A DNA stretch of 32,000 nt from Rickettsiales bacterium. GTDB taxonomy: Bacteria; Pseudomonadota; Alphaproteobacteria; Rs-D84. Shown here one piece after another: positions 2,125-16,475 of the stretch (the stretch's first letter is position 1; each line of letters begins with the position of its first letter). The stretch lies in the NCBI GenBank assembly GCA_031288835.1, contig JAITQO010000006.1, forward strand, positions 132,340 through 164,339, in the 5' to 3' direction. Made by a program: the position numbers and the translations under genes. The notes under the pieces are model-generated. The model was not told the origin of the DNA, made no database searches, and worked only from the letters and a program-made list of their open reading frames with translations.

Positions 2125-2940
2125 TCATTCGTATCTGCCGGCTTTGTCAAAAAACAAAATTATGACGCTTTCCTGCTCTTTCAATTCGCTGCCCGGCTTG
2201 ACCTTTACGCCGTCTGATTTTACGGATTCGATTTTTCCGACCGGAATATCGCTCGGAATATTTCCATTCACCCCGCTGGTAATCAAAAACATTCCGTCCT
2301 TGGGGACAAAGTCCCCGTCGGACAAGAATCGCAATTCCGGCCAAGACGTTCCGGTTCCCTGCATAAACCCGAAGACATCCGTTCCGGCTATGCGGACGGG
2401 AATGTTGGAGTCTCCGTCCCTAATCGACTGTATTTTGGCAAAGCCGCCCATTTTTTCCACTATTATTCCAAGCAGATATCCGGCGTTCGACACCACGACG
2501 TTTCCGGGAAACACTTCGTCGCCGGGACTTTTTATTACAAAACTTTGCTTCTCTAAAAAACTGTTATTATGGATGATTCGCGCGACGGCGGCCTCATATT
2601 TCATACTCTCTATGATTTTTAATTTTTCCTTTAACAATTCGTTTTCGAGCCTGAGTATCTCGTTTTCCACCGATACCTTGCTTATTTCCTCCAACTCGGC
2701 AATTATTTTCGCATTTTCCCTCATATTTTCCTTATTCTTGCGAACGCCCTCGGTTATTTTTCCAATAAGTCTGATTGGATATGATAATCCCTGGCCAACC
2801 ACCTGCGCCACCGGAACCGCCGCCCTGTGAATGAAATTAAAAAAAAGATAATCCGGCTTATCAATCAATATGATTATCATTACCGCGGGTATCGCGATTA
2901 CTGATAAAAATGCGGATAATAAGCGGTTTTTTCTCTGCAT
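2125..2940 (-). CDS. mreC: Rod shape-determining protein MreC
   Basis: 271 aa with an N-terminal TM segment, a coiled coil (ENELLKEKLKIIE) and a beta-rich C-terminal half (GDEVFPGNVVVSNAGYLLGIIVEK...ITSGVNGNIPSDIPVGKI). This is typical MreC. It sits upstream of mreD and mrdA. Confidence 0.85.
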   Translation of the reverse strand: MQRKNRLLSAFLSVIAIPAVMIIILIDKPDYLFFNFIHRAAVPVAQVVGQGLSYPIRLIGKITEGVRKNKENMRENAKIIAELEEISKVSVENEILRLENELLKEKLKIIESMKYEAAVARIIHNNSFLEKQSFVIKSPGDEVFPGNVVVSNAGYLLGIIVEKMGGFAKIQSIRDGDSNIPVRIAGTDVFGFMQGTGTSWPELRFLSDGDFVPKDGMFLITSGVNGNIPSDIPVGKIESVKSDGVKVKPGSELKEQESVIILFFDKAGRYE

Positions 2941-2981: not shown

Positions 2982-3009
2982 TTGATTTTTTGCAAAAATA
3001 ATATAAAAT
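2982..3009 (+). promoter_or_regulatory. Candidate sigma70-type promoter for rpmJ
   Basis: TTGATT (2982-2987), a 16-nt spacer, then TAAAAT (3004-3009). It lies about 20 nt upstream of the rpmJ ATG, which has a GAGG Shine-Dalgarno at 3022-3025. Confidence 0.4.
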
Positions 3010-3030
3010 TGCTCAGCAAGCGAGGTTATT

Positions 3031-3165
3031 ATGAGGATTTTGAGTTCATTAAAAGGGTGGAAAAAACGCGGCGAGTTAAAACAGATACGCCGCGGAAAAC
3101 AAATCATATTATTCGACCCGGCGAAACCTAAGTTCAAAGCGAAACAAGGTTATAAAAAGAAATAA
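3031..3165 (+). CDS. rpmJ: 50S ribosomal protein bL36 (non-zinc, YkgO/alphaproteobacterial type)
   Basis: A 44-codon ORF, below the track's size cut-off: MRILSSLKGWKKRGELKQIRRGKQIILFDPAKPKFKAKQGYKKK. It matches the M(K/R)(V/I)xxSLK...RRKG...P(R/K)FKA(K/R)QG pattern of type-B L36. It has a GAGG SD upstream and a strong terminator right after the stop. Confidence 0.7.
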   Translation: MRILSSLKGWKKRGELKQIRRGKQIILFDPAKPKFKAKQGYKKK

Positions 3166-3193
3166 ATCCCCGGTTTGAGGGATTTGTTTTTTT
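3164..3193 (+). terminator. Rho-independent terminator of rpmJ
   Basis: Stem AAATCCC (3164-3170) pairs with GGGATTT (3179-3185) around an 8-nt loop. GTTTTTTT follows at 3186-3193. Confidence 0.7.
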
Positions 3194-3252
3194 CATCAAG
3201 AATAAAAAAATTAAACTATTATTATTTATATTACTATTATGTATTGAAATTA

Positions 3253-3445
3253 TGTTAAAAATAAAATACTTTACTATTTAATGATATTTTTAACAAAAAA
3301 ATATGCGATTTTTGCATGTTTTATAAAATTGTTAAAATAATATGATTATTTTTAACAAAATAAGAATTGTTAAAAAAAGAATGTTTATTTTTATTTTAAA
3401 CAATATCTTCATTAATTATTTTTCTATTGTTAAAATATGTTAAAA
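3253..3445. promoter_or_regulatory. Array of TGTTAAAA / TTTTAACA motifs in the AT-rich region upstream of virB3
   Basis: TGTTAAAA occurs on the plus strand at 3253, 3330, 3368, 3428 and 3438. The inverted copy TTTTAACA occurs at 3288 and 3350, with a variant TTTTAAACAA at 3394. The copies alternate as convergent pairs. The last two direct copies are 10 nt apart and overlap the predicted virB3 promoter. Confidence 0.55.
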
Positions 3446-3455
3446 TCTTTATAAT
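3427..3455 (+). promoter_or_regulatory. Candidate sigma70-type promoter of virB3-virB4
   Basis: TTGTTA (3427-3432), a 17-nt spacer, then TATAAT (3450-3455). It ends 21 nt upstream of the virB3 ATG. A purine-rich AAAGG...GGGGAG tract lies between them. Confidence 0.5.
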
Positions 3456-3476
3456 TCCAAGAAAGGCAAGGGGAGA

Positions 3477-3773
3477 ATGAAGATTCCTATATTGAAGGCA
3501 TTGGCGAATCCTGCGCGCATATTTTTTGTGCCGTATAGTTTGGCGGTGTTTAATTTTTTAATATTATTTATTATATATTTGGCGATTTTTTCGATTGGAT
3601 TGGTTTTTAGCAACGGAAGAATATCGGTAAATCCGCTGTATTTTTTATTGACGTTGATGGCGGTGCATTCTATTTTGGCTTTTTGGTCTAAAAAGGAGCC
3701 GTTTTTAATGCGTATTATTATTGCGAAAATAGCGTTGTTCAAAAAGAGAATACCAAGCAGACTGGTTGTATAA
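3477..3773 (+). CDS. virB3: Type IV secretion system protein VirB3
   Basis: 98 aa with two TM segments. It has VirB3-like N-terminal (ILKALANPARIFFVPY) and C-terminal (HSILAFWSKKEPFL) signatures. Its stop TAA abuts the virB4 ATG directly. Confidence 0.8.
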   Translation: MKIPILKALANPARIFFVPYSLAVFNFLILFIIYLAIFSIGLVFSNGRISVNPLYFLLTLMAVHSILAFWSKKEPFLMRIIIAKIALFKKRIPSRLVV

Positions 3774-6203
3774 ATGCACGAATTTTTTGATTTTTTTATA
3801 AAGAATGATTTTCAAATGACGAACCTTTTGTTCGTCGGGCTTCTGTTTTTAATCTTTTTTATTCTGATTTTTTATACGCCGTTGCTATCAAAGGTTTTCT
3901 TCCCGGTATTCGGATATAAAAAATACAGCGATTATCTGCCGTTCGACCGGATTCAGGGCGACAATATGACGGTGAAATTGAAAGACGGGACGCTGGTCAG
4001 GGCATTCGGGATAGGCGGCGTTCAGACGGGGATGATGGACGAGAATCAAAGCCAGCGGCTGTTCGATATGAAACAATCCCTGTTCAATCAAATAAAGGAT
4101 AGGGATATAGTTTTAAGATTTTATACAATCCGCACCAAGACGGCTTATGACGACGATTATGAGTTTGACCAGAATATCTTGCAACGCATTTACAACAGGT
4201 GGAAAAAACAGGGGTTGAAAATATTCGACAACAAAAACTATCTGGTTTTGAGCGTTTTCGGAACGGACGCGGTCGAACGCATGGACAATTATACGAATAC
4301 TATTTTATCCATTTTATCCGTTTTCAACGCGAAAATCATGAAACATGACGAGCAGGAAAACATAGCCTCCCTGTTTTCGCGCGTTTTGTCGCCCGTTTCT
4401 ATGCCGGTAATCCTGCGTGCGAACCAAAATATGAACGAATTGGTTTCTTCGGACAACGCCGAGTTTTTGCCGGGCGGAATCATAAGATTCAATTTCGGCA
4501 CAGACGCGAAGTATGCGTCCATTGTATCTATAAAAGTCGCGCCGGATTTCATCGACACAGATTTTTTCGAACAGGCGCTGGGTTTGCAGTGCGAGGTTGT
4601 CTCGTCGAGCGCGTTCCGTATTCATAACGCCGTGAATATCGAGCGGCTGATGCGGCAAAAGCAGTCGAGCGAATCGTCAAATAAAAACAGCCAGAAAATA
4701 GTTTCGGAGCAAATCGAGCAGGCGTATGAAAAAATCGACGAAAACATCATGGGGAACCAGACGTTCGTCGATTTTTATCCTTCGTTTATGATTTTCGGCG
4801 AGACGGTCGAGGAGTTGGAGTCTAACGTATCCGAGATGAAGAAAATATTCGCGATATTCGGGGTGGCGCCCGTCGCGGAGGTATTCGCCCTAAAGGCTGC
4901 GTTTTTTTCTCAAATCCCCGGATTCGACGATTTCCCGCGCGGATTCAACGTCCTGTCCGGCGCTGCCGCCGCGGCGCTGCCCCTCGGCTTTATTCCGCCC
5001 GGCATTCCGAATTCGGACTGGGGCAGGGGGCCGCTTGTCGTTTTTCCGACATCCGCAGGCACTCCGTATCAATTCCAATTCCATGTTTCCGAACAGCCGG
5101 GCGCCGTGGGGCATACCCTGGTCATCGGCCCGACGGGCGGCGGAAAAACGACTTTGTTTTCATTTTTAATCGCGCAGAGCCTGAGGCATCAGAAATTGAA
5201 GGCGTTTTTCTTCGACCGCAACCGCGGCGCGGAAATTTTTACGCTCGCGACCGGCGGAAAATACGTCGGTTTGGAAAACCGCTCGCAGAACGCGGATAGA
5301 ATCGCGGCGTCGTTCAATGCGAAAATGAATCCCCTGAAAATGGAGGACAACGAATACAACCGCGCGTTTTTGCGCAAGTGGCTGGCCTTGCTCGCCAATG
5401 CGACGCAGCCGTCCGATTTGGATGAAATCGCCCGCGCCGTATCCGTCGTGTTCGATTATCTGGACGGCAAAGACAAACTGCTGGAGAATCTTTACACGGC
5501 GTGTTTTTCAAGCGGCGGCGGCATTCGCGGCGAATTGAAGAAGTGGATTGACCCGCTGCAATACGGCGACGTATTCAACGAGGACACGGACACTTTGGAC
5601 CTGTTCTCGCGCCTGACGACATTCGACTTCACCGACGTGCTGAACGACGCGGTTCTCGCGCCCGCGGTGATTTCCTATATATTGCACAGAATCAATTCAA
5701 TCACCCTGTCGTCAGGCGCGCCCGCGCTGATTATGATTGATGAGACCGCCCCAATGCTCGAAAACAAAATGTTCCGCGACAATTTCATAACCGGACTGCA
5801 GGAGGGTCGCAAAAACAGGCAATGCTATATGGCGGCCTTTCAGAGGGCGAACGTTATCGACAAACTCGGCATCGGCGATGTGGTCCGCGGGCAGGCACAG
5901 ACGGTTTTGTTCTTCCGAAATCAGGCCGCGACGAACGAGGATTACGGTTATTGGAAACTGAATCCTACGGAAATGGCGTTCATAAAGGGAACGGCGTATC
6001 CGAATCTGAAAAGGGCGGTTTTGCTTTCGCGCCCGATTACCGGGGAATCGGTCATATTGAACACCGAGCTTGGCGGATTGGGCAATCTGCTGAAATTGTT
6101 CGAAAGCGGACGCCCGTCGGTTTTGCTGGCCGAGGAGTTATACCGCCAGTTTGGCTCGGGCTTTGTAGACCATTATCTGAAGCAGGTTGAAGTCGATGAG
6201 TAA
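3774..6203 (+). CDS. virB4: Type IV secretion system ATPase VirB4
   Basis: 809 aa. Walker A is VIGPTGGGKTTLFSF and Walker B is ALIMIDETAP. The C-terminal motifs (RKNRQCYMAAFQ, VLFFRNQ) and the position after virB3 fit VirB4/CagE/TrbE. Confidence 0.9.
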   Translation: MHEFFDFFIKNDFQMTNLLFVGLLFLIFFILIFYTPLLSKVFFPVFGYKKYSDYLPFDRIQGDNMTVKLKDGTLVRAFGIGGVQTGMMDENQSQRLFDMKQSLFNQIKDRDIVLRFYTIRTKTAYDDDYEFDQNILQRIYNRWKKQGLKIFDNKNYLVLSVFGTDAVERMDNYTNTILSILSVFNAKIMKHDEQENIASLFSRVLSPVSMPVILRANQNMNELVSSDNAEFLPGGIIRFNFGTDAKYASIVSIKVAPDFIDTDFFEQALGLQCEVVSSSAFRIHNAVNIERLMRQKQSSESSNKNSQKIVSEQIEQAYEKIDENIMGNQTFVDFYPSFMIFGETVEELESNVSEMKKIFAIFGVAPVAEVFALKAAFFSQIPGFDDFPRGFNVLSGAAAAALPLGFIPPGIPNSDWGRGPLVVFPTSAGTPYQFQFHVSEQPGAVGHTLVIGPTGGGKTTLFSFLIAQSLRHQKLKAFFFDRNRGAEIFTLATGGKYVGLENRSQNADRIAASFNAKMNPLKMEDNEYNRAFLRKWLALLANATQPSDLDEIARAVSVVFDYLDGKDKLLENLYTACFSSGGGIRGELKKWIDPLQYGDVFNEDTDTLDLFSRLTTFDFTDVLNDAVLAPAVISYILHRINSITLSSGAPALIMIDETAPMLENKMFRDNFITGLQEGRKNRQCYMAAFQRANVIDKLGIGDVVRGQAQTVLFFRNQAATNEDYGYWKLNPTEMAFIKGTAYPNLKRAVLLSRPITGESVILNTELGGLGNLLKLFESGRPSVLLAEELYRQFGSGFVDHYLKQVEVDE

Positions 6204-7796: not shown

Positions 7797-7873
<77 letters not shown>

Positions 7874-9190: not shown

Positions 9191-10147
9191 ATGATAACGC
9201 CGTTTTGGTTTCGCAATTTCAATCTGTTCGCGGTCTTGCTGCTGCCTTTGTCGGCCGCATATTTTCTGTTGTCGAAAGTTTTTTTTATCCCCCGGTTGTT
9301 TTGCGGAAAAATATCAAAAACACCGGTGATTTCGATTGAAAAATCATATCTTGGCGCCGCCGAAACAACCCCTTTTGTTCGTGAGATTGCGAAATACTTG
9401 GGCGCGCCCGTCATAGTGCCCGGCCGCGGCCGCGGTTCGAAGGCCAGGGCATCGGACAGCGCGCGCGAGGCTGGCGTTCCGGCGAAAATACTGTCCGCGT
9501 CCGGCATAGACGTTTATATCGGAAACGCCCCGGAAAACATAAGCGCAATCGATTATGCCGAATCAAAGGTTCCGGCGATTGTTTTGGATGGCGCCTGGAA
9601 CGGCGCAAAGAACGGCATTTCAATTCTATTTTTCGACGAAAGCGCCGGGAACTCGTTTCTGTTGCCCGCGGGCCCGATGCGCGAGACGCCGCGTTCCGGG
9701 GTTCGACGGTGCGATGCGGTTTTGCTGGAGCACAATAATGCCGCGGCCGCGAATCTTCGCATACTGAAGGTGGCAAAAAAGGCAAAAAAGCCGGTATTTT
9801 TTGCAAGGTGCGAACTTGACGCGACGGGGTTGTTCGGCAAATACGTCGCGTTCGCCAGCGGCGATGCGAACGTTTTTTTTGACGCTCTGAGAAATGTAAT
9901 CAGCATTCGCGTCGTTGAAAGGGTTCCGTTCCGCGGAAACCATTTTTATACCAGGGATGAAATCGTAAAATTGTTTCGGCTGGCGAAAAAATACGACGCC
10001 CGTTTGGTTTGCTCCGAGAACGACTGGAACAAATTGCCGCGCAACATTCAGCAAAAGGTTCGCTTTGTGCCAAAGAAAGTAACGCTGCAGCCGAACTTTT
10101 ACGTATGGCTTGAAAAGAAACTTGGGGTTGAAAATGAAGAAGGTTGA
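9191..10147 (+). CDS. lpxK: LpxK (tetraacyldisaccharide 4'-kinase) homologue with degenerate catalytic motifs
   Basis: The N-terminal membrane helix, LLPLS, LPAGPMRE, DAVLL and the C-terminal SENDWNK align with LpxK. The P-loop GNxxxGGxGKTP reads EKSYLGAAETTP, SRGYG reads GRGRG, and DDGxQH reads LDGAWN. Confidence 0.7.
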   Translation: MITPFWFRNFNLFAVLLLPLSAAYFLLSKVFFIPRLFCGKISKTPVISIEKSYLGAAETTPFVREIAKYLGAPVIVPGRGRGSKARASDSAREAGVPAKILSASGIDVYIGNAPENISAIDYAESKVPAIVLDGAWNGAKNGISILFFDESAGNSFLLPAGPMRETPRSGVRRCDAVLLEHNNAAAANLRILKVAKKAKKPVFFARCELDATGLFGKYVAFASGDANVFFDALRNVISIRVVERVPFRGNHFYTRDEIVKLFRLAKKYDARLVCSENDWNKLPRNIQQKVRFVPKKVTLQPNFYVWLEKKLGVENEEG

Positions 10148-11120
10148 AATATCGGGCGTCGGGATTCATTCCGGCGTCGAATCAAGCATAACTGTCCGGG
10201 CGACGGATTCGGGCGGAATCGTTTTTATAAGGAACGGGGTTCGAATTCCGGCGTTGTATAAAAATGTGGCCAACGCCATGTTGCGCAACACCGCAATCGG
10301 AATTCCGCCGAACGAGGTGACGACAATCGAGCATTTCATGGCCGCGATGTTCGTTTGCGGGATTGCGAACGCGGAAATAGAAATCGACGGCCCCGAGATG
10401 CCGATTCTGGACGGCGCCGCCGCGGAATTGATTGGCAGATTGAAGGGCTTGGTTCCGGCGGTCCAGTCCGGTCTTCTGGTTGTTAAAAACGAGGTTGTCG
10501 CAAGGCGGGGGGAATTGGATAAAAAACTGCCGTGGTGGATAAAGGCTGCCAACTTTATTTGCGGGCGGCGGCGGGACGGCTATGTCAAGCTGTCGCCGTC
10601 CGATGGAAAAAGACTGGAAATTTTCGCCCGGCTGATTTACAAGGAACCGGTCATCGGCGACCAAAAATACGCGTTTGTTTTCGACTATGGCGATTTCGGC
10701 GCATCGGCCGCGGATTTTGAGAAAACCATCGCAAAGGCGCGGACATTCGGAACAGTCGGCGAGTGGGAATGGCTGAAAAGGCGCGGCATGGGGCGGGGCG
10801 CGAATGAGCGGAATGTTATCGCGCTTGGCACTATAAGCGAATTGGAAAGGCTGCAGAGGCTTGGCCTGGGGTGCGGCGTGAAAGCGGAAAACATAACGTC
10901 GGCGGGAAAAAACGACGTCGTAGCGCTGACGAGGCTTTATTACCCCGACGAATTCGTCCGGCACAAAATCATCGATATTGTCGGCGACCTTTACATGTCG
11001 GGATTTCGCGTCGCCGGAAAGATTGATTCGTTCAAGGGCAGCCACGCGCTGAACAATCTCGCGCTCAGAAAATTATTCAGCAATGCGGAAAATTATGATA
11101 TAATTCCGTTTGAGATATGA
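10134..11120 (+). CDS. lpxC: UDP-3-O-acyl-N-acetylglucosamine deacetylase LpxC
   Basis: ISGVGIHSG, TTIEHFMAA, DGPEMPILDGAAA, KARTFG, FVRHKIIDIVGDLYMSG and KGSHALNN all match LpxC, so the zinc and catalytic residues appear present. The ATG at 10134 overlaps the lpxK end by 14 nt; the track start is 10110. Confidence 0.85.
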   Translation: MKKVEISGVGIHSGVESSITVRATDSGGIVFIRNGVRIPALYKNVANAMLRNTAIGIPPNEVTTIEHFMAAMFVCGIANAEIEIDGPEMPILDGAAAELIGRLKGLVPAVQSGLLVVKNEVVARRGELDKKLPWWIKAANFICGRRRDGYVKLSPSDGKRLEIFARLIYKEPVIGDQKYAFVFDYGDFGASAADFEKTIAKARTFGTVGEWEWLKRRGMGRGANERNVIALGTISELERLQRLGLGCGVKAENITSAGKNDVVALTRLYYPDEFVRHKIIDIVGDLYMSGFRVAGKIDSFKGSHALNNLALRKLFSNAENYDIIPFEI

Positions 11121-11671: not shown

Positions 11672-12151
11672 ATGTTTTTGAAAAATGTCGAATCTTTGCG
11701 GAATTATGCGGCCGGGTTTGCGAGGGAATTGCGGCCGCCGGTTTGCGTCGCGCTGCACGGCGAGCTCGGCGTCGGAAAGACCGAATTCGCGCGCGCCGCG
11801 ATTCGGGCGATGTGCGGCGAAGACATCGTTGTTCCAAGCCCGACGTTCACGTTGGTTCAGGAATACGAAATCCAAAGTCCGGAATCCGGCGGCCAAATCC
11901 CGCCGTCCGGATTTCAAACATTTCATTTTGATTTATACAGGGTGAATAGCGCCGAAGAATTGGAAGAAATCGGATTTTTTGACGTGATTTCGTCCGGCTT
12001 GGTCTTTGTCGAATGGCCGGAAATCGCAGCCGGTTTTCTACCCGAAAATACGATGCATGTTTATTTGTCCGTCAGCGGGGCAGGGCGGGAAGTAACGGTC
12101 GACCCATGTATGAAACCATCCTACCCTGTTGGATTTTCATCTGCGCAATGA
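11672..12151 (+). CDS. tsaE: tRNA t6A37 biosynthesis ATPase TsaE (YjeE)
   Basis: It has the P-loop LHGELGVGKTEF, then SPTFTLVQEY, HFDLYR and VFVEWPE, which are diagnostic TsaE motifs. Confidence 0.85.
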   Translation: MFLKNVESLRNYAAGFARELRPPVCVALHGELGVGKTEFARAAIRAMCGEDIVVPSPTFTLVQEYEIQSPESGGQIPPSGFQTFHFDLYRVNSAEELEEIGFFDVISSGLVFVEWPEIAAGFLPENTMHVYLSVSGAGREVTVDPCMKPSYPVGFSSAQ

Positions 12152-12532: not shown

Positions 12533-14239
12533 TTATCTCTTTGGCAGCAGTTTCACGACCGCATCCGCAAAATCCGGCGCGTTGTGCAGAAAACTGCCGC
12601 TGACCAGAAAGTCCGCGCCCGCGTCCCAGCACAGTTGGGCGGTTTCATCGTTGATTCCGCCGTCCGCCGAAATCCGGTAATCAAAGCCGTATTTCGCGCG
12701 CGTGTTCGCGATAATCCGAATCCTTTTCGGCGTTTCCGGCCGAAATTGCTGCCCGCTGGCGCCGGGGGCGACGCCCATTACCATCACCTCGTCCAGCATG
12801 AACAGCAACTCCTTTCTCAAGTTCCCCAAATCAAAATCCGGATGCAGCGCCAATCCGCATTCCTTTCCCGTCATTTTTATTTTTTTCAGCGCCCCGACGA
12901 TGTTTCTTGTTCCGCTGGAAAGAATTATCGTGTCCGCTCCGTGCCGGGCGACAGGCTCAATCCACGCCATCGGGTCGTCGACCATCAGGTGCGCGTGCAT
13001 CCGCATGGGCGTCCTCGCGCGGATTTTCCGCATGTCGTCCAAGGTGCCCGACACGCGCGTTGTGTAAAATCCGTCCATTATATCCATGTGGATTTTGTTT
13101 ATTCCGACGCTTGAAAACATTTTGTAGAGATAGGCGTTGCCTATGTCCCAGCACATGACAGACGGAATAATCGGCACGTTTCTTCTCGGTTTCAACCCGG
13201 CCGGTTCCCGTCTTTTTATACCCATATTCTGCTTGAACATGTTTCCGAACGCGCCGACAACCGCATATTCGTCCAATATCGTTATTTCTTCCAATCCTTT
13301 GTTTTTAAGGATTAGAGAGTATATATTGTCGGGCGTCGTTCCGGCCCCGGTTATGAACATGCGTCGGCTGTCGGTTCTGAGCCCTCCTAGAATCTCGTCC
13401 ATAATCCGCTCGTTCGCCTCGTTCCATGCGTTCCATACGTCGCTGCGCGTGATTGAGCTGTGTATGTCCGATGCCGACACGTATTCGTCCGACTGCGCCG
13501 GCGGAACGTTCAGCGCGTCCAATTTTATTTTCTCGGCGTCCGCATGCCTTATGCCGAAATCCGCGGATATTTTTTTTGTTATTTCGTCTTGTCCCATTCC
13601 GATGTCGAACCTTTCGACCAGCCCCCTGTTTTTGCACACGCCGACCGATGTTTTCGTCTTGCCAAAATCGATGAACACGGCCGTTTCGTTTTTTTTGTGG
13701 TACGCCTTTCCCAGGAGATATATCGGGTCGTAGAATCCGAGCGGCGGAACGCACGCGGACATCAGCCCCCTTTTTATTTCTTCGATGATTTCGTCCGGAT
13801 ACGTTATGGCGTTGAAGCGGACGGAAAACGTGCCGCATGAAATGTCCCGCATGTTCGCGACGTCGCCGCCGTCGACCAGAAATTGCAGCGGAATCAGGTG
13901 CAGGGTCGCGTTCGCTGTGCAGCGCGCGTCCCGCGAGTTGAAAATCGCGTTGCAAACGTCTATCTGCCCCAGCCTTCGCGGCCTTGGGAAGCAGATGGTG
14001 TTTTTTCCGAACACGGATTCCACCGGCCCGAAATTTCCCGTGATGTGCGCGCCGCCGAACCGGACGTTTAATTTTTCTTCGATTGCGTCGATTGTCCGCG
14101 CCATGTTTTTCGCCGTGCTGTCGCCGCTTTCGGAGTGAAGGCAGCTCCGCGTCGTCCCGCCGTCGCACGCCATGCCGAATCCGCGCACGGTTTGGCTTCC
14201 CACGTCAAGCCCCAGAAAAGAAGTTTTTTTCCTAGACAA
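12533..14239 (-). CDS. ftsA: Fusion protein: FtsA-like actin-fold division protein (about aa 1-340) joined to a ribulose-phosphate 3-epimerase-like TIM barrel (about aa 355-568)
   Basis: It is one uninterrupted 568-aa ORF. The N-terminal part aligns with FtsA: FLGLDVGSQTV, LHLIPLQFLVDG, VFIDFGKTKTSVGV, GIRHADAEKIK, MFITGAGTT and YAVVGAFGNM. The C-terminal part aligns with Rpe: IIPSVMCWD, KIHMDIMDGFY, HAHLMV, VMGVAPGASGQQF, ISADGGI and FLVSGSF. The start is TTG, 3 nt after the ftsQ TAG and in the same frame. Confidence 0.8.
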   Translation of the reverse strand: MSRKKTSFLGLDVGSQTVRGFGMACDGGTTRSCLHSESGDSTAKNMARTIDAIEEKLNVRFGGAHITGNFGPVESVFGKNTICFPRPRRLGQIDVCNAIFNSRDARCTANATLHLIPLQFLVDGGDVANMRDISCGTFSVRFNAITYPDEIIEEIKRGLMSACVPPLGFYDPIYLLGKAYHKKNETAVFIDFGKTKTSVGVCKNRGLVERFDIGMGQDEITKKISADFGIRHADAEKIKLDALNVPPAQSDEYVSASDIHSSITRSDVWNAWNEANERIMDEILGGLRTDSRRMFITGAGTTPDNIYSLILKNKGLEEITILDEYAVVGAFGNMFKQNMGIKRREPAGLKPRRNVPIIPSVMCWDIGNAYLYKMFSSVGINKIHMDIMDGFYTTRVSGTLDDMRKIRARTPMRMHAHLMVDDPMAWIEPVARHGADTIILSSGTRNIVGALKKIKMTGKECGLALHPDFDLGNLRKELLFMLDEVMVMGVAPGASGQQFRPETPKRIRIIANTRAKYGFDYRISADGGINDETAQLCWDAGADFLVSGSFLHNAPDFADAVVKLLPKR

Positions 14240-14242
14240 TTT

Positions 14243-14884
14243 CTATTTCACAAGCGCGCGGCCGGCATCCCTTAAATCCAGCGTCGAGAACGATTTGCCG
14301 AGAATGCCGGAACCCGTTATTCGGCGAATCGCGTCCGCCTCGTTTCGTTCAGGCAACATCACGAGCGCGCCGCCCGCCAGCACTATGTTCCACCTGCGCC
14401 CCTCCGCATACTCCAAATAACGGATTCTTTTCGCCAGTTCCGGCGCCCCAGACAAAATCCTTATTATTTCCCCGACGCCATTCGGCAGCGCGCCGCGGAA
14501 TACGATGCCTTGCTCCGGCTTTTTCGGAAACGCGGCGCTTATATGCGCCCCGTTTTCCAGCAGCGGGTAAAACACTCCATCGTTTTCCCAGACGCCTACA
14601 ACCTTTTTATATTTGATTCGGACATCGGCCGTTCCGTTTTGGTTGTTCCTGACGGAAATATGCTCTATATTCGGGAACCGTTCCGCCAGTTCCGCGGGGA
14701 TTTTTCCCGGCGTTTTTGCATTTTTTGACAAGAATTGCCGGACATCGTCGCCAATCTTTCCAATGTTGGAATAAACGATAATTTTATTCGGCGGAACGTC
14801 TCCGATTGCGAACCGCACGGCCGCGTAAACCATAATCGCGCCGGCGGCGAACGCGCAAACGAAAAGGGGGAGTTTTCCTTTCAT
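14243..14884 (-). CDS. ftsQ: Cell division protein FtsQ
   Basis: 213 aa with an N-terminal TM segment, a POTRA-like region (ISVRNNQNGTADVRIKYKKVVGVWE) and the motif EGRRWNIVLAGGALVMLPE. It sits immediately upstream of the ftsA homologue. Confidence 0.8.
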   Translation of the reverse strand: MKGKLPLFVCAFAAGAIMVYAAVRFAIGDVPPNKIIVYSNIGKIGDDVRQFLSKNAKTPGKIPAELAERFPNIEHISVRNNQNGTADVRIKYKKVVGVWENDGVFYPLLENGAHISAAFPKKPEQGIVFRGALPNGVGEIIRILSGAPELAKRIRYLEYAEGRRWNIVLAGGALVMLPERNEADAIRRITGSGILGKSFSTLDLRDAGRALVK

Positions 14885-15729
14885 TCCCGTATCATGGCCT
14901 TCAGTTTGTTCATGTTTTTCTCGAAACTGTAGTTCTGCGCGCGGCGGATGTTTTCGTTCTCGAACTTCTCGCGCTGCTTCGACGGCGTTTCCAATATTTT
15001 TTGCAGCACATCGGACACGCCGTTTTTAAGCAGTATGTTGGGTTTTATGTCGCTCTGCCTCCACGCGGTCATGCGCCCCATCGCGTTGGCGGCGATTTTA
15101 TAGAAACTGCTTTTGTTGGACAGGGATATGATTGCGAAACTCGCCCGCATGAGCGACGGCAGGTCTTGCTCTTTCCCCACGTAAATGATTTGCGGGACGT
15201 TTTCGATTTTCCTGCTGATTCGCCGCGCCGTCCTATGGGTGATTTTTCCATAGAGGGCGATTATATAGTCGTCGCGTCCCAGTTCCTGAATCGTCTGAAT
15301 CAGGCTTTTTATGTCCTTTTCCGGAAAATCCATCGCAAGAAGCATCTTCTGGTGCGGCTGTATATTGTATTGCGCCAGCAGCATTGTCTGCCTGTTCCCG
15401 GAAATAGCCTTGGGATTCCATACGGACAGGTCGATTCCTATGTTCTCCAGAAACTCCGCCGCTTGCCGCCGCGCCTTTTTCGCGAACGCCGCCGCCGGCC
15501 CGTCGAAGCACACGATTTTTCCTTGAAAGTTTTTAATCTTTTTCGCGCCGAGCAAGCACCGGCCTATTTTGCGAAGGCGGATGAAATGCCTGGCCGAAAA
15601 ATACTGCAGGTTTTCATTCGCCGGCGCGCCTATGAAGACGTCGCATCCGCCGCGCGTCATCTGCTTCGAGAACGCAATCAGCTGGCGCGACAGATGCGAC
15701 GTTAAAAACAGCAAATTGTTATTCTGCAC
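14881..15729 (-). CDS. Glycosyltransferase-like protein (degenerate GT-B/GT4 pattern)
   Basis: GIDLSVWNP resembles the GT4 GVDxxxFxP motif, and IIYVGKEQDLPSLMRASFAIISLS resembles the GT4 C-terminal pattern. The canonical EX7E motif is not evident. Its stop overlaps the ftsQ ATG (ATGA). Confidence 0.4.
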   Translation of the reverse strand: MQNNNLLFLTSHLSRQLIAFSKQMTRGGCDVFIGAPANENLQYFSARHFIRLRKIGRCLLGAKKIKNFQGKIVCFDGPAAAFAKKARRQAAEFLENIGIDLSVWNPKAISGNRQTMLLAQYNIQPHQKMLLAMDFPEKDIKSLIQTIQELGRDDYIIALYGKITHRTARRISRKIENVPQIIYVGKEQDLPSLMRASFAIISLSNKSSFYKIAANAMGRMTAWRQSDIKPNILLKNGVSDVLQKILETPSKQREKFENENIRRAQNYSFEKNMNKLKAMIRE

Positions 15730-16105
15730 GGAGTAGGTATCCTTTTTTGAACATGCATTTCCTGTATGCGCCGACAGATTTGCTGGTCGTCCCCGGAGGG
15801 CTGGACATCAGGTACCTCTGCGGAATATCCTTGTTTTCGTTCGATTGGAAGGTCACCCACATTCCCTCCCAGTTCGGCATTTGGTTTCCGGCGTTCGGCA
15901 TCAGCAATTTCGCCACGCGCGAGCGCGGCATGTGCGCGGGCCGGTCCACGCCAAGGCAAACCTTGTGGTCCTTGACGAACTGCTCGCTGGTGACGGATTC
16001 GTTCTCCCAGTTCAGAATGGTGGCGTTGTCGATATTCCCGCTGTTCGGGCTGCTGCATGCGTAAATCGACAACAGACACGCGACAATAGGCAAGGTTTTT
16101 TTCAT
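15719..16105 (-). CDS. Lipoprotein of unknown function
   Basis: MKKTLPIVACLLSIYAC has a lipobox when started at ATG 16105 (or 16114). The track's longer start at 16264 would overlap the divergent gene. The 3' end overlaps the GT-like gene start by 11 nt. Confidence 0.55.
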   Translation of the reverse strand: MKKTLPIVACLLSIYACSSPNSGNIDNATILNWENESVTSEQFVKDHKVCLGVDRPAHMPRSRVAKLLMPNAGNQMPNWEGMWVTFQSNENKDIPQRYLMSSPPGTTSKSVGAYRKCMFKKGYLLRAE

Positions 16106-16126
16106 TGTCCGCATATTATAATTTAA

Positions 16127-16156
16127 TTGCGTCAAAGGGTCAATAGTTTCTATAAT
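16127..16156 (+). promoter_or_regulatory. Candidate promoter for the 16176-17776 two-gene operon
   Basis: TTGCGT (16127-16132), an 18-nt spacer, then TATAAT (16151-16156). The -10 box overlaps the track's ATG at 16155, which argues for the downstream ATG at 16176. That ATG has a GAGAGGG SD. Confidence 0.4.
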
Positions 16157-16175
16157 GTCCGAAAGAGAGGGCCGA

Positions 16176-16475
16176 ATGGAAAAGTTCAACGCTCTGGCCG
16201 GATTGTATGAAAAAGTCCGGACAGTCATGTCCGCCATATGCGTCGAAAAGGGCGGAATCGACATAGATAATTACAGCGGACGGTTCTTCGCCGCCGATTT
16301 GCTGGAACTTGTCGTCGCGTTTGGCGAAGCGGCCGGAGCGGACGTGTCGGAACTGAAGGCGGAGCTGGAGGCGAAGAAGGACAATCTCACGCCTTCGAGC
16401 AAGCCGATTTACGAAATGACTCTGGCGGAGTTCGAAAAGCTGATTGCGCCGGAGGAAGTAAAGGATTTGACATGA
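16176..16475 (+). CDS. Small acidic, predicted helical protein of unknown function
   Basis: 99 aa (MEKFNALAGLYEKV...) with no signal peptide. Its stop overlaps the ATG of the downstream lipoprotein (ATGA), which implies translational coupling. Confidence 0.5.
   Translation: MEKFNALAGLYEKVRTVMSAICVEKGGIDIDNYSGRFFAADLLELVVAFGEAAGADVSELKAELEAKKDNLTPSSKPIYEMTLAEFEKLIAPEEVKDLT

Follow-up and report, generated by a model that had tools for sequence, protein, structure and literature searches.

The DNA analyzed here, referred to below as the window, is a 32,000-nucleotide stretch of the genome of a Rickettsiales bacterium (GTDB lineage Bacteria; Pseudomonadota; Alphaproteobacteria; Rs-D84; assembly GCA_031288835.1, contig JAITQO010000006.1, positions 132,340–164,339). 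On its minus strand, directly after the cell division gene ftsQ, it contains an open reading frame (ORF) in which an FtsA-type actin-like domain continues in frame into a barrel of the ribulose-phosphate 3-epimerase (Rpe) family. The ORF and its parts are as follows:

12533–14239, minus strand: ftsA::rpe fusion ORF of 568 aa, taken from the ORF list, with a TTG start and the stop codon at 12533–12535.
13223–14239, minus strand: FtsA-type actin-like domain, residues 1–339 (profile search against PDB, Foldseek, conserved residues), with the 1C/SHS2 subdomain at about 74–161, phosphate-1 LDVGS at 11–15, phosphate-2 DFGKTKT at 191–197, and the adenosine motif ITGAG at 296–300.
13175–13222, minus strand: inter-domain linker, residues 340–355 (GIKRREPAGLKPRRNV), polybasic, rich in Pro and Gly, predicted to be disordered.
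12533–13174, minus strand: Rpe-family (beta/alpha)8 barrel, residues 356–568 and the stop codon (PF00834, alignment with 2FLI, Foldseek), with metal and catalytic residues H384, D386, H417, and D526, methionines M388, M419, and M488, and phosphate loops PGASGQ (492–497), DGG (526–528), and SGS (546–548).

The gene was reproduced uninterrupted in the Logan assembly of the source sample (SRR14710895), which was made with another assembler. Public gene calls of the same DNA are shorter: 556 aa at JGI and 546 aa in Logan (L083, 6712–8352). Both start 3′ of the TTG codon (window 14204–14239, minus strand) and clip the conserved phosphate-1 motif. Since these later starts lose the phosphate-1 segment F-L-x-L-D-x-G, which is nearly invariant in the family alignment, TTG is the best reading of the start. 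Clipped gene calls may have contributed to the missing annotation of FtsA.

The model of the window protein built with AlphaFold2 (AF2) from an alignment of 51 fusion proteins (A1) had a mean predicted local confidence (pLDDT) of 89.3 and consisted of two folded domains with a disordered segment at residues 340–352, and Foldseek led from it to FtsA and Rpe. The predicted template modeling score (pTM) was 0.58–0.62 for the models of the window protein and of its homolog P0034. The ORF, the profile searches, and the structure model agree with a preliminary description of this DNA, which had proposed an in-frame join of a complete FtsA-type fold and a complete Rpe barrel right after ftsQ; the ORF of the window is thereby confirmed as a genuine FtsA–Rpe fusion protein.

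Residues 1–339 have the FtsA fold, including its 1C subdomain. The profile of alignment A1 matched FtsA structures in PDB (7q6f, 4e-22; S. aureus 3wt0, 1e-20; 1e4f, 7e-14) far better than those of PilM (8e-10) and MreB (9e-9). With an alignment of the N-terminal domain only (A3), residues 5–339 aligned end to end with residues 7–372 of FtsA from V. maritimus (7q6f, E=4e-21), taking in the HxIP motif of 1C and the adenosine motif. The top Foldseek matches of the window model in PDB were FtsA structures with template modeling (TM) scores of 0.64–0.69 (on target), and a member of the Enterousia type reached 0.70–0.75 with FtsA vs. 0.56 with PilM, over about 350–390 alignment columns for both models. 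The SHS2_FTSA Pfam domain was precomputed on several homologs. Residues D12, G14, H114, P117, D191, G193, and G298 were invariant in all 81 genomic copies of the fusion (the window and 80 further loci, see below).

The domain shares with canonical FtsA of E. coli, T. maritima, S. aureus, and V. maritimus (7q6d, 1e4f/4a2a, 3wqu, 7q6f) subdomains 1A, 1C, 2A, and 2B, the phosphate-1, phosphate-2, and adenosine motifs, the HxIP of 1C, and the position of the gene directly after ftsQ. It differs from them in a core shorter by about 40 residues, in an identity to the solved FtsAs of 13–19%, and in the absence of a following ftsZ; instead of a free C-terminal linker and helix, the chain continues into an enzyme domain of 213 residues. 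The phosphate-2 motif, DFGKTKT in the window copy and D-F-G-A-E-F-T in the family consensus, had been taken in the preliminary description as a sign of altered ATP binding. It is not good evidence for this: DIGAGT of V. maritimus and DIGEDVT of S. aureus occur in true FtsAs, so the variant lies within the known range, and the key residues D191, G193, D12, G14, and G298 as well as T/S197 (50 of the 51 aligned fusion proteins) were kept. Crystal structures of S. aureus FtsA with ATP and AMPPNP exist (3wqu, 3wqt).

The C-terminal domain was assigned to the Rpe family by Pfam Ribul_P_3_epim (PF00834, residues 373–550, E=3e-35, 121.7 bits vs. a gathering score of 21.1), and NCBIfam rpe models spanned residues 354–560. 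In a phmmer search of PDB it matched 14 Rpe-family structures, 13 of Rpe and one of D-allulose-6-phosphate 3-epimerase; the best was 2FLI from S. pyogenes (E=9e-35), aligned over residues 356–561 with 34% identity and superimposed by Foldseek on the modeled barrel with a TM score of 0.91 and a root-mean-square deviation of 1.5 Å. Residues H384, D386, H417, and D526, which lie in the segments HMDIMDG, HLMV, and ADGG noted earlier, were present and aligned with H34, D36, H67, and D176 of 2FLI, which we take, from the structural literature on Rpe, to be metal ligands and acid-base residues accompanied by active-site methionines. The four residues and M388, M419, and M488 were invariant in 81 of 81 genomic copies. 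The DGG and GS loops were invariant together with the catalytic residues, though overall identity to the window protein falls to 31%; four loci with an intact fusion carry the variant HVDVMDG. Like Rpe of S. pyogenes (2FLI), human (3OVP), and Synechocystis (1TQJ), the domain thus comprises a full barrel with His/Asp/His/Asp, methionines, and the DGG and GS loops; unlike these proteins of about 220 aa, it is fused behind FtsA, has a changed capping loop and H-x-E motif, and scores below the equivalog level. The chemistry of the barrel is probably retained.

As to the relationships of the barrel, it appeared nearer to Rpe of the Lactobacillales type: 2FLI was its best structure, and Trichococcus and Aerococcus clusters were among the top stand-alone matches. 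Rpe structures from the proteobacteria P. aeruginosa, N. gonorrhoeae, and Stenotrophomonas were matched more weakly (1e-14 to 1e-17). These similarities hint at a non-alphaproteobacterial source of the rpe gene of gut Alphaproteobacteria.

The fusion was found in many related genomes. At least 120 homologs among 139 protein matches share both domains (120 being those listed); most of the listed ones are full length, about 546–598 aa, and 30–59% identical to the window protein in full-length alignments. The genomic set comprised one genome per GTDB species and gave 80 loci (L001–L080), i.e., 81 copies with the window. All 80 loci were near full length, aligning from query residues 1–7 to 561–568, and an intact ORF of 552–598 aa was present in 81 of 81 copies. 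The carriers are metagenome-assembled genomes (MAGs) named 'Candidatus Enterousia', 'Alphaproteobacteria bacterium', or 'Rickettsiales bacterium' from guts of human, ruminants, horse, mouse, and termites; one carrier is a closed chromosome of 958,618 bp (OZ007020.1). Among 1.84 billion cluster representatives, about 22 near-full-length fusion clusters at 50% identity were found (384–884 bits), along with fragments; below them, the score fell abruptly to stand-alone Rpe of about 217 aa (184 bits or less). Neither the 81 genomic copies nor the representative matches included a split form. Three candidates for natural split genes, P0139 (Rpe only) and P0143 and P0146 (FtsA only), all proved to be fragments: P0139 is a shortened call whose first residue is the Met of I-M-P-S, a conserved motif, P0143 is a contig-end fragment that stops where the FtsA core ends, and P0146 is frameshifted and runs on out of frame.

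'Candidatus Enterousia' belongs to the order Rs-D84, whose genomes are mostly smaller than 1 Mb and encode a fermentative metabolism (PMC12306168). Most genes of the non-oxidative pentose phosphate pathway are reported to be present in most Rs-D84 genomes, and FtsA is not mentioned (PMC12306168). Two MAGs of that study are among the 80 loci (L036 and L043). The fusion is fixed across the Rs-D84 / 'Ca. Enterousia' order, in at least 80 GTDB species. The search of related genomes proposed earlier returned the same fusion in 80 species, intact in all of them. With regard to the possibility, also raised in the preliminary description, that such a fusion is widespread and already annotated, the first part holds and the proteins are public, but the FtsA half has never been annotated as such.

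Selection was estimated from the ratio of nonsynonymous to synonymous substitution rates (dN/dS) by the Nei–Gojobori method for 71 pairs of fusion genes with 80–95% amino-acid identity. The FtsA part gave a ratio of 0.081, the linker 0.162, and the barrel 0.055, the lowest of the protein. Purifying selection acts strongly on both halves and is also seen in the junction region. Because the metal and catalytic positions do not vary and purifying selection is strong, the barrel is most likely still an enzyme and not an anchor alone; the earlier suggestion that it had been reused as a mere membrane or partner anchor is disfavored on the same grounds.

In the window protein, the pLDDT of the linker was below 50 at residues 340–352; within alignment columns 338–356 the linker counted 19 residues with four Pro/Gly, a net charge of +5, and a hydrophobic moment (muH, Eisenberg scale) of 0.26. 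In 78 of the 81 genomic copies the linker is 34–41 residues long, and an amphipathic 14-mer is followed by a polybasic run. The 14-mer had a median muH of 0.65 (range 0.44–0.93), above the 95th percentile of background 14-mers in 68 of the 78, and the median net charge was +10. In the AF2 model of P0034, the segment formed a 25-residue helix (347–371, pLDDT 83–95) followed by a disordered basic stretch. Two control tails gave similar values: the C-terminus of a stand-alone FtsA encoded in a gut alphaproteobacterial MAG (NFWNKFMKFWMENFG) had a muH of 0.57, and that of E. coli FtsA had 0.62.

The helix was absent from the window protein, from its two GTDB relatives, L001 and L002 (both from termite-gut MAGs), and from the other metagenomic members of the same subclade. 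The three helix-less genomic copies had linkers of 17–19 residues with a net charge of +3 to +7 and a muH of 0.23–0.40; in the 17 proteins of the subclade overall, the linker comprised 16–24 residues. Compared with canonical FtsA, the amphipathic helix is internal in most fusions and absent from the window copy. Two further candidates were rejected. The linker of P0133 (WDYRWVQIKNWFEKHL) resembled the tail of E. coli FtsA, but its muH was only 0.37 and it was not counted as evidence. The last 20 residues of the window protein reached a muH of 0.56, but they form the confidently modeled final helix of the barrel (alpha-8), and no tail extends beyond it. The preliminary description was right that this copy lacks a C-terminal amphipathic tail, since the chain ends in alpha-8 and the linker has a low muH. 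Its further statement that the barrel had replaced the membrane helix applies to the small subclade of the window but not to the family, 78 of 81 copies of which keep an internal helix. Judging from the sequences, the predicted membrane helix is internalized in the family as a whole and lost in the termite-gut subclade.

A weak promoter-like match (TTGAAA-17-GATTAT, 9/12; 13195–13167, minus strand) was noticed in the linker-coding region, just upstream of the barrel; at this stringency, chance alone would give 3.5 sites over the region scanned. In many proteins of the Enterousia type, the I-M-P-S motif that opens the barrel includes a Met. The barrel could conceivably be expressed on its own from an internal start or promoter, the promoter match being at chance level.

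The genes and the promoter-like site around the fusion are as follows:

14243–14884, minus strand: ftsQ, 213 aa (PF03799 FtsQ_DivIB_C, E=7e-8).
14881–15729, minus strand: gene of 282 aa with no Pfam match, overlapping the start of ftsQ by 4 nt.
15719–16114, minus strand: small conserved gene of family F2, probable lipoprotein, heading the gene string.
16115–16143, minus strand: promoter-like site TTGACC-17-TATAAT, 11/12 in a consensus scan, the best in the region, abutting the start of the small gene.
11672–12151, plus strand: tsaE (PF02367, E=2e-30), convergent with the fusion and ending the division-gene string.

The stop codon of ftsQ (TAG, 14245–14243) lies 3 nt ahead of the TTG of the fusion, and the two genes are therefore probably translationally coupled. 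An FtsQ-family ORF was found immediately upstream in 80 of the 81 copies by ORF clustering. The deepest-branching fusion, P0133 (623 aa, locus L087), is placed in the order ftsI-ftsQ-fusion-rpmB. The conserved order is the small gene, sometimes the 282-aa gene, ftsQ, the fusion, and then convergent tsaE and uvrB; in most of the 80 loci, the gene after the fusion is this tsaE. The 282-aa gene, whose family (F27) was present in 7 of the 81 copies, had a weak match to the NCBIfam model GlcN_PG_synth (glycosyltransferase-like, E=2.5e-4). The small gene, without a Pfam match, belongs to a family located upstream of ftsQ in most loci. Its ORF was called at 15719–16264 (181 aa), the likely true start being M51 or M54 (MRTMKKTLPIVACLLSIYAC); the product is a probable lipoprotein of about 130 aa, with a signal peptide and a lipobox-like sequence recognized by inspection of the translation. 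The site at 16115–16143 may serve as promoter of the entire string, the fusion included, and the small gene would possibly be expressed from a leaderless or very short-leader transcript.

Other genes of cell envelope and division were scattered. Across the 80 loci and the window, the usual mur and ddl genes do not precede ftsQ and ftsA, and the cluster of division and cell-wall genes is broken up in this order. The lpxC and lpxK genes are located nearby on the other strand of the window (9191–11120). About 52 kb around the window (the window and about 10 kb on each side, from Logan contigs) contained mreC, pbp2, and rodA. The genes mreC, a small gene (possibly mreD), pbp2, and rodA were intact beside topA and dnaG (window 2125–2940, minus strand; L082), so the elongasome is retained. 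At 3477–6203 on the plus strand, the window encodes a small membrane protein of 98 aa that we read as VirB3-like and a VirB4/TrbE-type ATPase of 809 aa (PF03135), beside an AT-rich stretch (3001–4000) with 30% GC vs. about 52% in the window; these genes may be what is left of a type IV secretion system or may belong to an acquired island. A type IV secretion coupling protein was encoded near the division genes in the P0133 locus. The sole tRNA gene of the window is tRNA-Met (CAT) at 7797–7873 on the plus strand.

A possible precursor arrangement was found in a gut alphaproteobacterial MAG (L084; ENA scaffold XIEF21-1_SAMN15830133 scaffold_45), where ftsQ, ftsA, an ABC-transporter gene, and rpe are separate genes on one strand. 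Its ftsA encodes 417 aa and ends in the amphipathic tail used above as a control; its rpe encodes 230 aa and belongs to one of the best-scoring stand-alone Rpe clusters, composed of gut 'Alphaproteobacteria bacterium' MAGs. The other top stand-alone Rpe sequences came from Lactobacillales or from unrelated gene contexts. The locus shares with the fusion the order and strand of ftsQ, ftsA, and rpe, the absence of ftsZ after ftsA, and an amphipathic FtsA tail as in most fusion linkers; it differs in having two genes split by the ABC-transporter gene. This order is plausible as the precursor; the scenario is weak in one respect, L084 being only distant kin (22–23% identity in FtsA, 36–39% in Rpe), and the gene order is known from one lineage.

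On this scenario, the fusion would have arisen once, during genome reduction, from neighboring genes: loss of intervening DNA would have joined ftsA, downstream of its own C-terminal amphipathic helix, to rpe. The internal helix and polybasic run of most members would be explained by this joining of rpe behind the membrane helix of FtsA. The termite-gut subclade of the window would later have deleted the helix and kept a short linker, flexible and highly basic; the members of this subclade may attach to the membrane via this linker, via partner proteins, or via oligomerization of the barrel. Among the representatives, P0165, P0265, and P0222 are other Rpe fusions, with domains assigned by reading of the sequence as hexulose-phosphate-synthase-like::Rpe (429 aa), 6-phosphogluconolactonase-like::Rpe (472 aa), and RuvX/YqgF-like::Rpe (362 aa); the Rpe barrel seems prone to N-terminal fusion.

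The interpretation that we favor, with reasonable though far from complete confidence, is that the gene encodes the divisome FtsA of this lineage and a catalytically competent Rpe-family epimerase in one bifunctional polypeptide. The FtsA part would still work in the divisome, and the barrel would still interconvert ribulose-5-phosphate and xylulose-5-phosphate, or a close analogue, for a truncated pentose phosphate pathway. We infer that FtsA and Rpe are each present as a sole copy; no ftsZ and no second ftsA or rpe was found in the 52 kb around the window.

Several observations weigh against this interpretation. Taken as a single sequence, the window protein scored below the gathering score of PF14450 (28.9 vs. 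31.8 bits) and far below the cutoff of TIGR01174 (30.7 vs. 175.85 bits), and its N-terminal half had no phmmer match in PDB at E<=0.01. The proposed profile check of each half accordingly succeeded at once for Rpe and failed for FtsA at the level of the single sequence; PF14450 was passed by a relative of the Enterousia type (58.5 bits), and the doubt over the N-terminal half is removed by the match of the family profile to FtsA structures (4e-22). The barrel scored below the NCBIfam equivalog cutoffs (TIGR01163, 133.4 vs. 212.6; NF004076, 149.8 vs. 165), an AlsE-type model matched it as well (109.8 bits), and the capping loop is PGA(A/S)GQ family-wide instead of PGFGGQ; because of these scores and the changed loop, its substrate could differ from ribulose-5-phosphate. 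We failed to find an ORF with a tubulin signature (GGGTG[ST]G, then GGTG[STA]G, the scan covering every ORF of 70 aa or more) within 10 kb on either side in any of the 80 loci or the window. The canonical ftsA-ftsZ linkage is thus missing, and a second stand-alone ftsA or rpe could lie beyond the 52 kb searched. The distance of the unfused locus L084 is to be added to these points.

A regulatory role of the fusion is possible but, in our judgment, unlikely. FtsA would then be hard-wired to a pentose-phosphate enzyme, and the barrel, as a ligand-binding or oligomerizing module, would tune FtsA polymerization and membrane attachment through its occupancy or oligomeric state according to the pentose-phosphate level, so that the growth state would be physically coupled to the divisome. 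In the subclade of the window, with the same reserve, the barrel and the polybasic linker would functionally replace the lost membrane-targeting helix. Metabolic enzymes acting on the divisome include UgtP in B. subtilis, OpgH in E. coli, and GdhZ and KidO in Caulobacter. In these cases too, an enzyme of central metabolism is physically tied to the early division machinery, and GdhZ and KidO, acting on FtsZ, offer by analogy a possible precedent within Alphaproteobacteria; they are, however, separate, known regulators that bind FtsZ reversibly, whereas here the enzyme is covalently joined to FtsA and is not known to have a regulatory effect. The linkage is kept order-wide with no split form, the helix-less subclade dropped the helix yet retained the fusion, and the barrel sits where the regulatory and membrane-binding C-terminus of FtsA would be. 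That C-terminus has been described as a switch for polymerization and membrane association (PMC4252000). On the other hand, the sequence gives nothing to separate sensing from plain catalysis, and the conserved catalytic residues are equally expected of a housekeeping enzyme. The modest pTM and the disordered linker give no sign of a fixed interface between the domains. Reduced genomes often contain fusions of neighboring genes, which do not call for a regulatory explanation; a neutral fusion of this kind in shrinking genomes is the most economical explanation.

We regard it as improbable that the N-terminal domain is an FtsA-like paralog, e.g., a scaffold of the PilM/FtsA family for a metabolic enzyme, with a canonical ftsA and ftsZ located elsewhere. 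This would account for the absence of ftsZ within 10 kb in every locus and for the strong divergence from solved FtsAs, the window copy being sub-threshold; PilM (2ych, 5eox) has an FtsA-like fold with a 1C-type subdomain, and one fusion member was named PilM by NCBI. PilM was nevertheless the weaker match (about 1e-10 vs. 1e-21; TM 0.56 vs. 0.70–0.75), FtsA being ahead of PilM and MreB by about ten orders of magnitude in the profile search, and the HxIP of 1C typical for FtsA was invariant. No pilN, pilO, pilP, or pilQ gene was found near the fusion; its context is ftsQ, with ftsI-ftsQ in the P0133 locus, and the coding frames of ftsQ and the fusion nearly abut. Genomes smaller than 1 Mb seldom keep paralogs (PMC12306168).

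A pseudoenzyme has a slimmer chance still. The barrel would in this case lack epimerase activity and serve as a structural, dimerizing, or anchoring stand-in for the FtsA tail, in agreement with the sub-equivalog scores, the altered capping loop, and the family-wide replacement of H-x-E after strand 4 by L-S-(S/T). Its four metal and catalytic residues, three methionines, and DGG and GS loops are nonetheless invariant down to 31% identity, and no other part of the protein is as constrained. Enzymes of the non-oxidative pentose phosphate pathway have been reported from Rs-D84 genomes, and the gene listed as Rpe in databases for these MAGs is the fusion. An assembly or sequencing artefact, i.e., a chimeric join or a stop-removing indel, is practically negligible: it has in its favor the sole prior that fusions in single MAGs can be artefacts and the disagreement of gene callers on the start (556 vs. 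546 aa), and misassembly and frameshift are rejected by the in-frame fusion in 80 independent species genomes including a closed chromosome, the agreement of a second assembler, the lack of a split form, and purifying selection on the junction.

Returning to the bifunctional FtsA–Rpe protein, full-text literature searches returned no description of such a fusion, in line with the preliminary description, which knew of no described fusion of FtsA with a pentose-phosphate enzyme. The fusion proteins are public under the name 'ribulose-phosphate 3-epimerase', with 'PilM' in one case; their annotation reflects only the barrel, and metabolic reconstructions of Rs-D84 / 'Ca. Enterousia' probably count an Rpe and miss FtsA.

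The C-terminal amphipathic helix of FtsA is considered indispensable both for the membrane tether of FtsZ and for the switch between oligomeric states of FtsA. In this order, the predicted helix is buried between two domains, one subclade has deleted it, and a 24-kDa enzyme is hung on the end. Cell-division specialists would find the fusion clearly surprising, the new element being an FtsA with an internalized or lost helix and a fused enzyme. If both halves do their usual jobs, the fusion is a tidy product of genome reduction and of moderate interest. If the less likely regulatory coupling were true, it would represent a covalent metabolism-to-division device and a new mode of FtsA anchoring. 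Should this be the sole FtsA of these bacteria, it would show how much the FtsA C-terminus tolerates and would serve as a natural test of how FtsA attaches to the membrane when it has no terminal helix. The fusion is, in any case, a candidate physical link between central carbon metabolism and cell division in organisms with minimal genomes.

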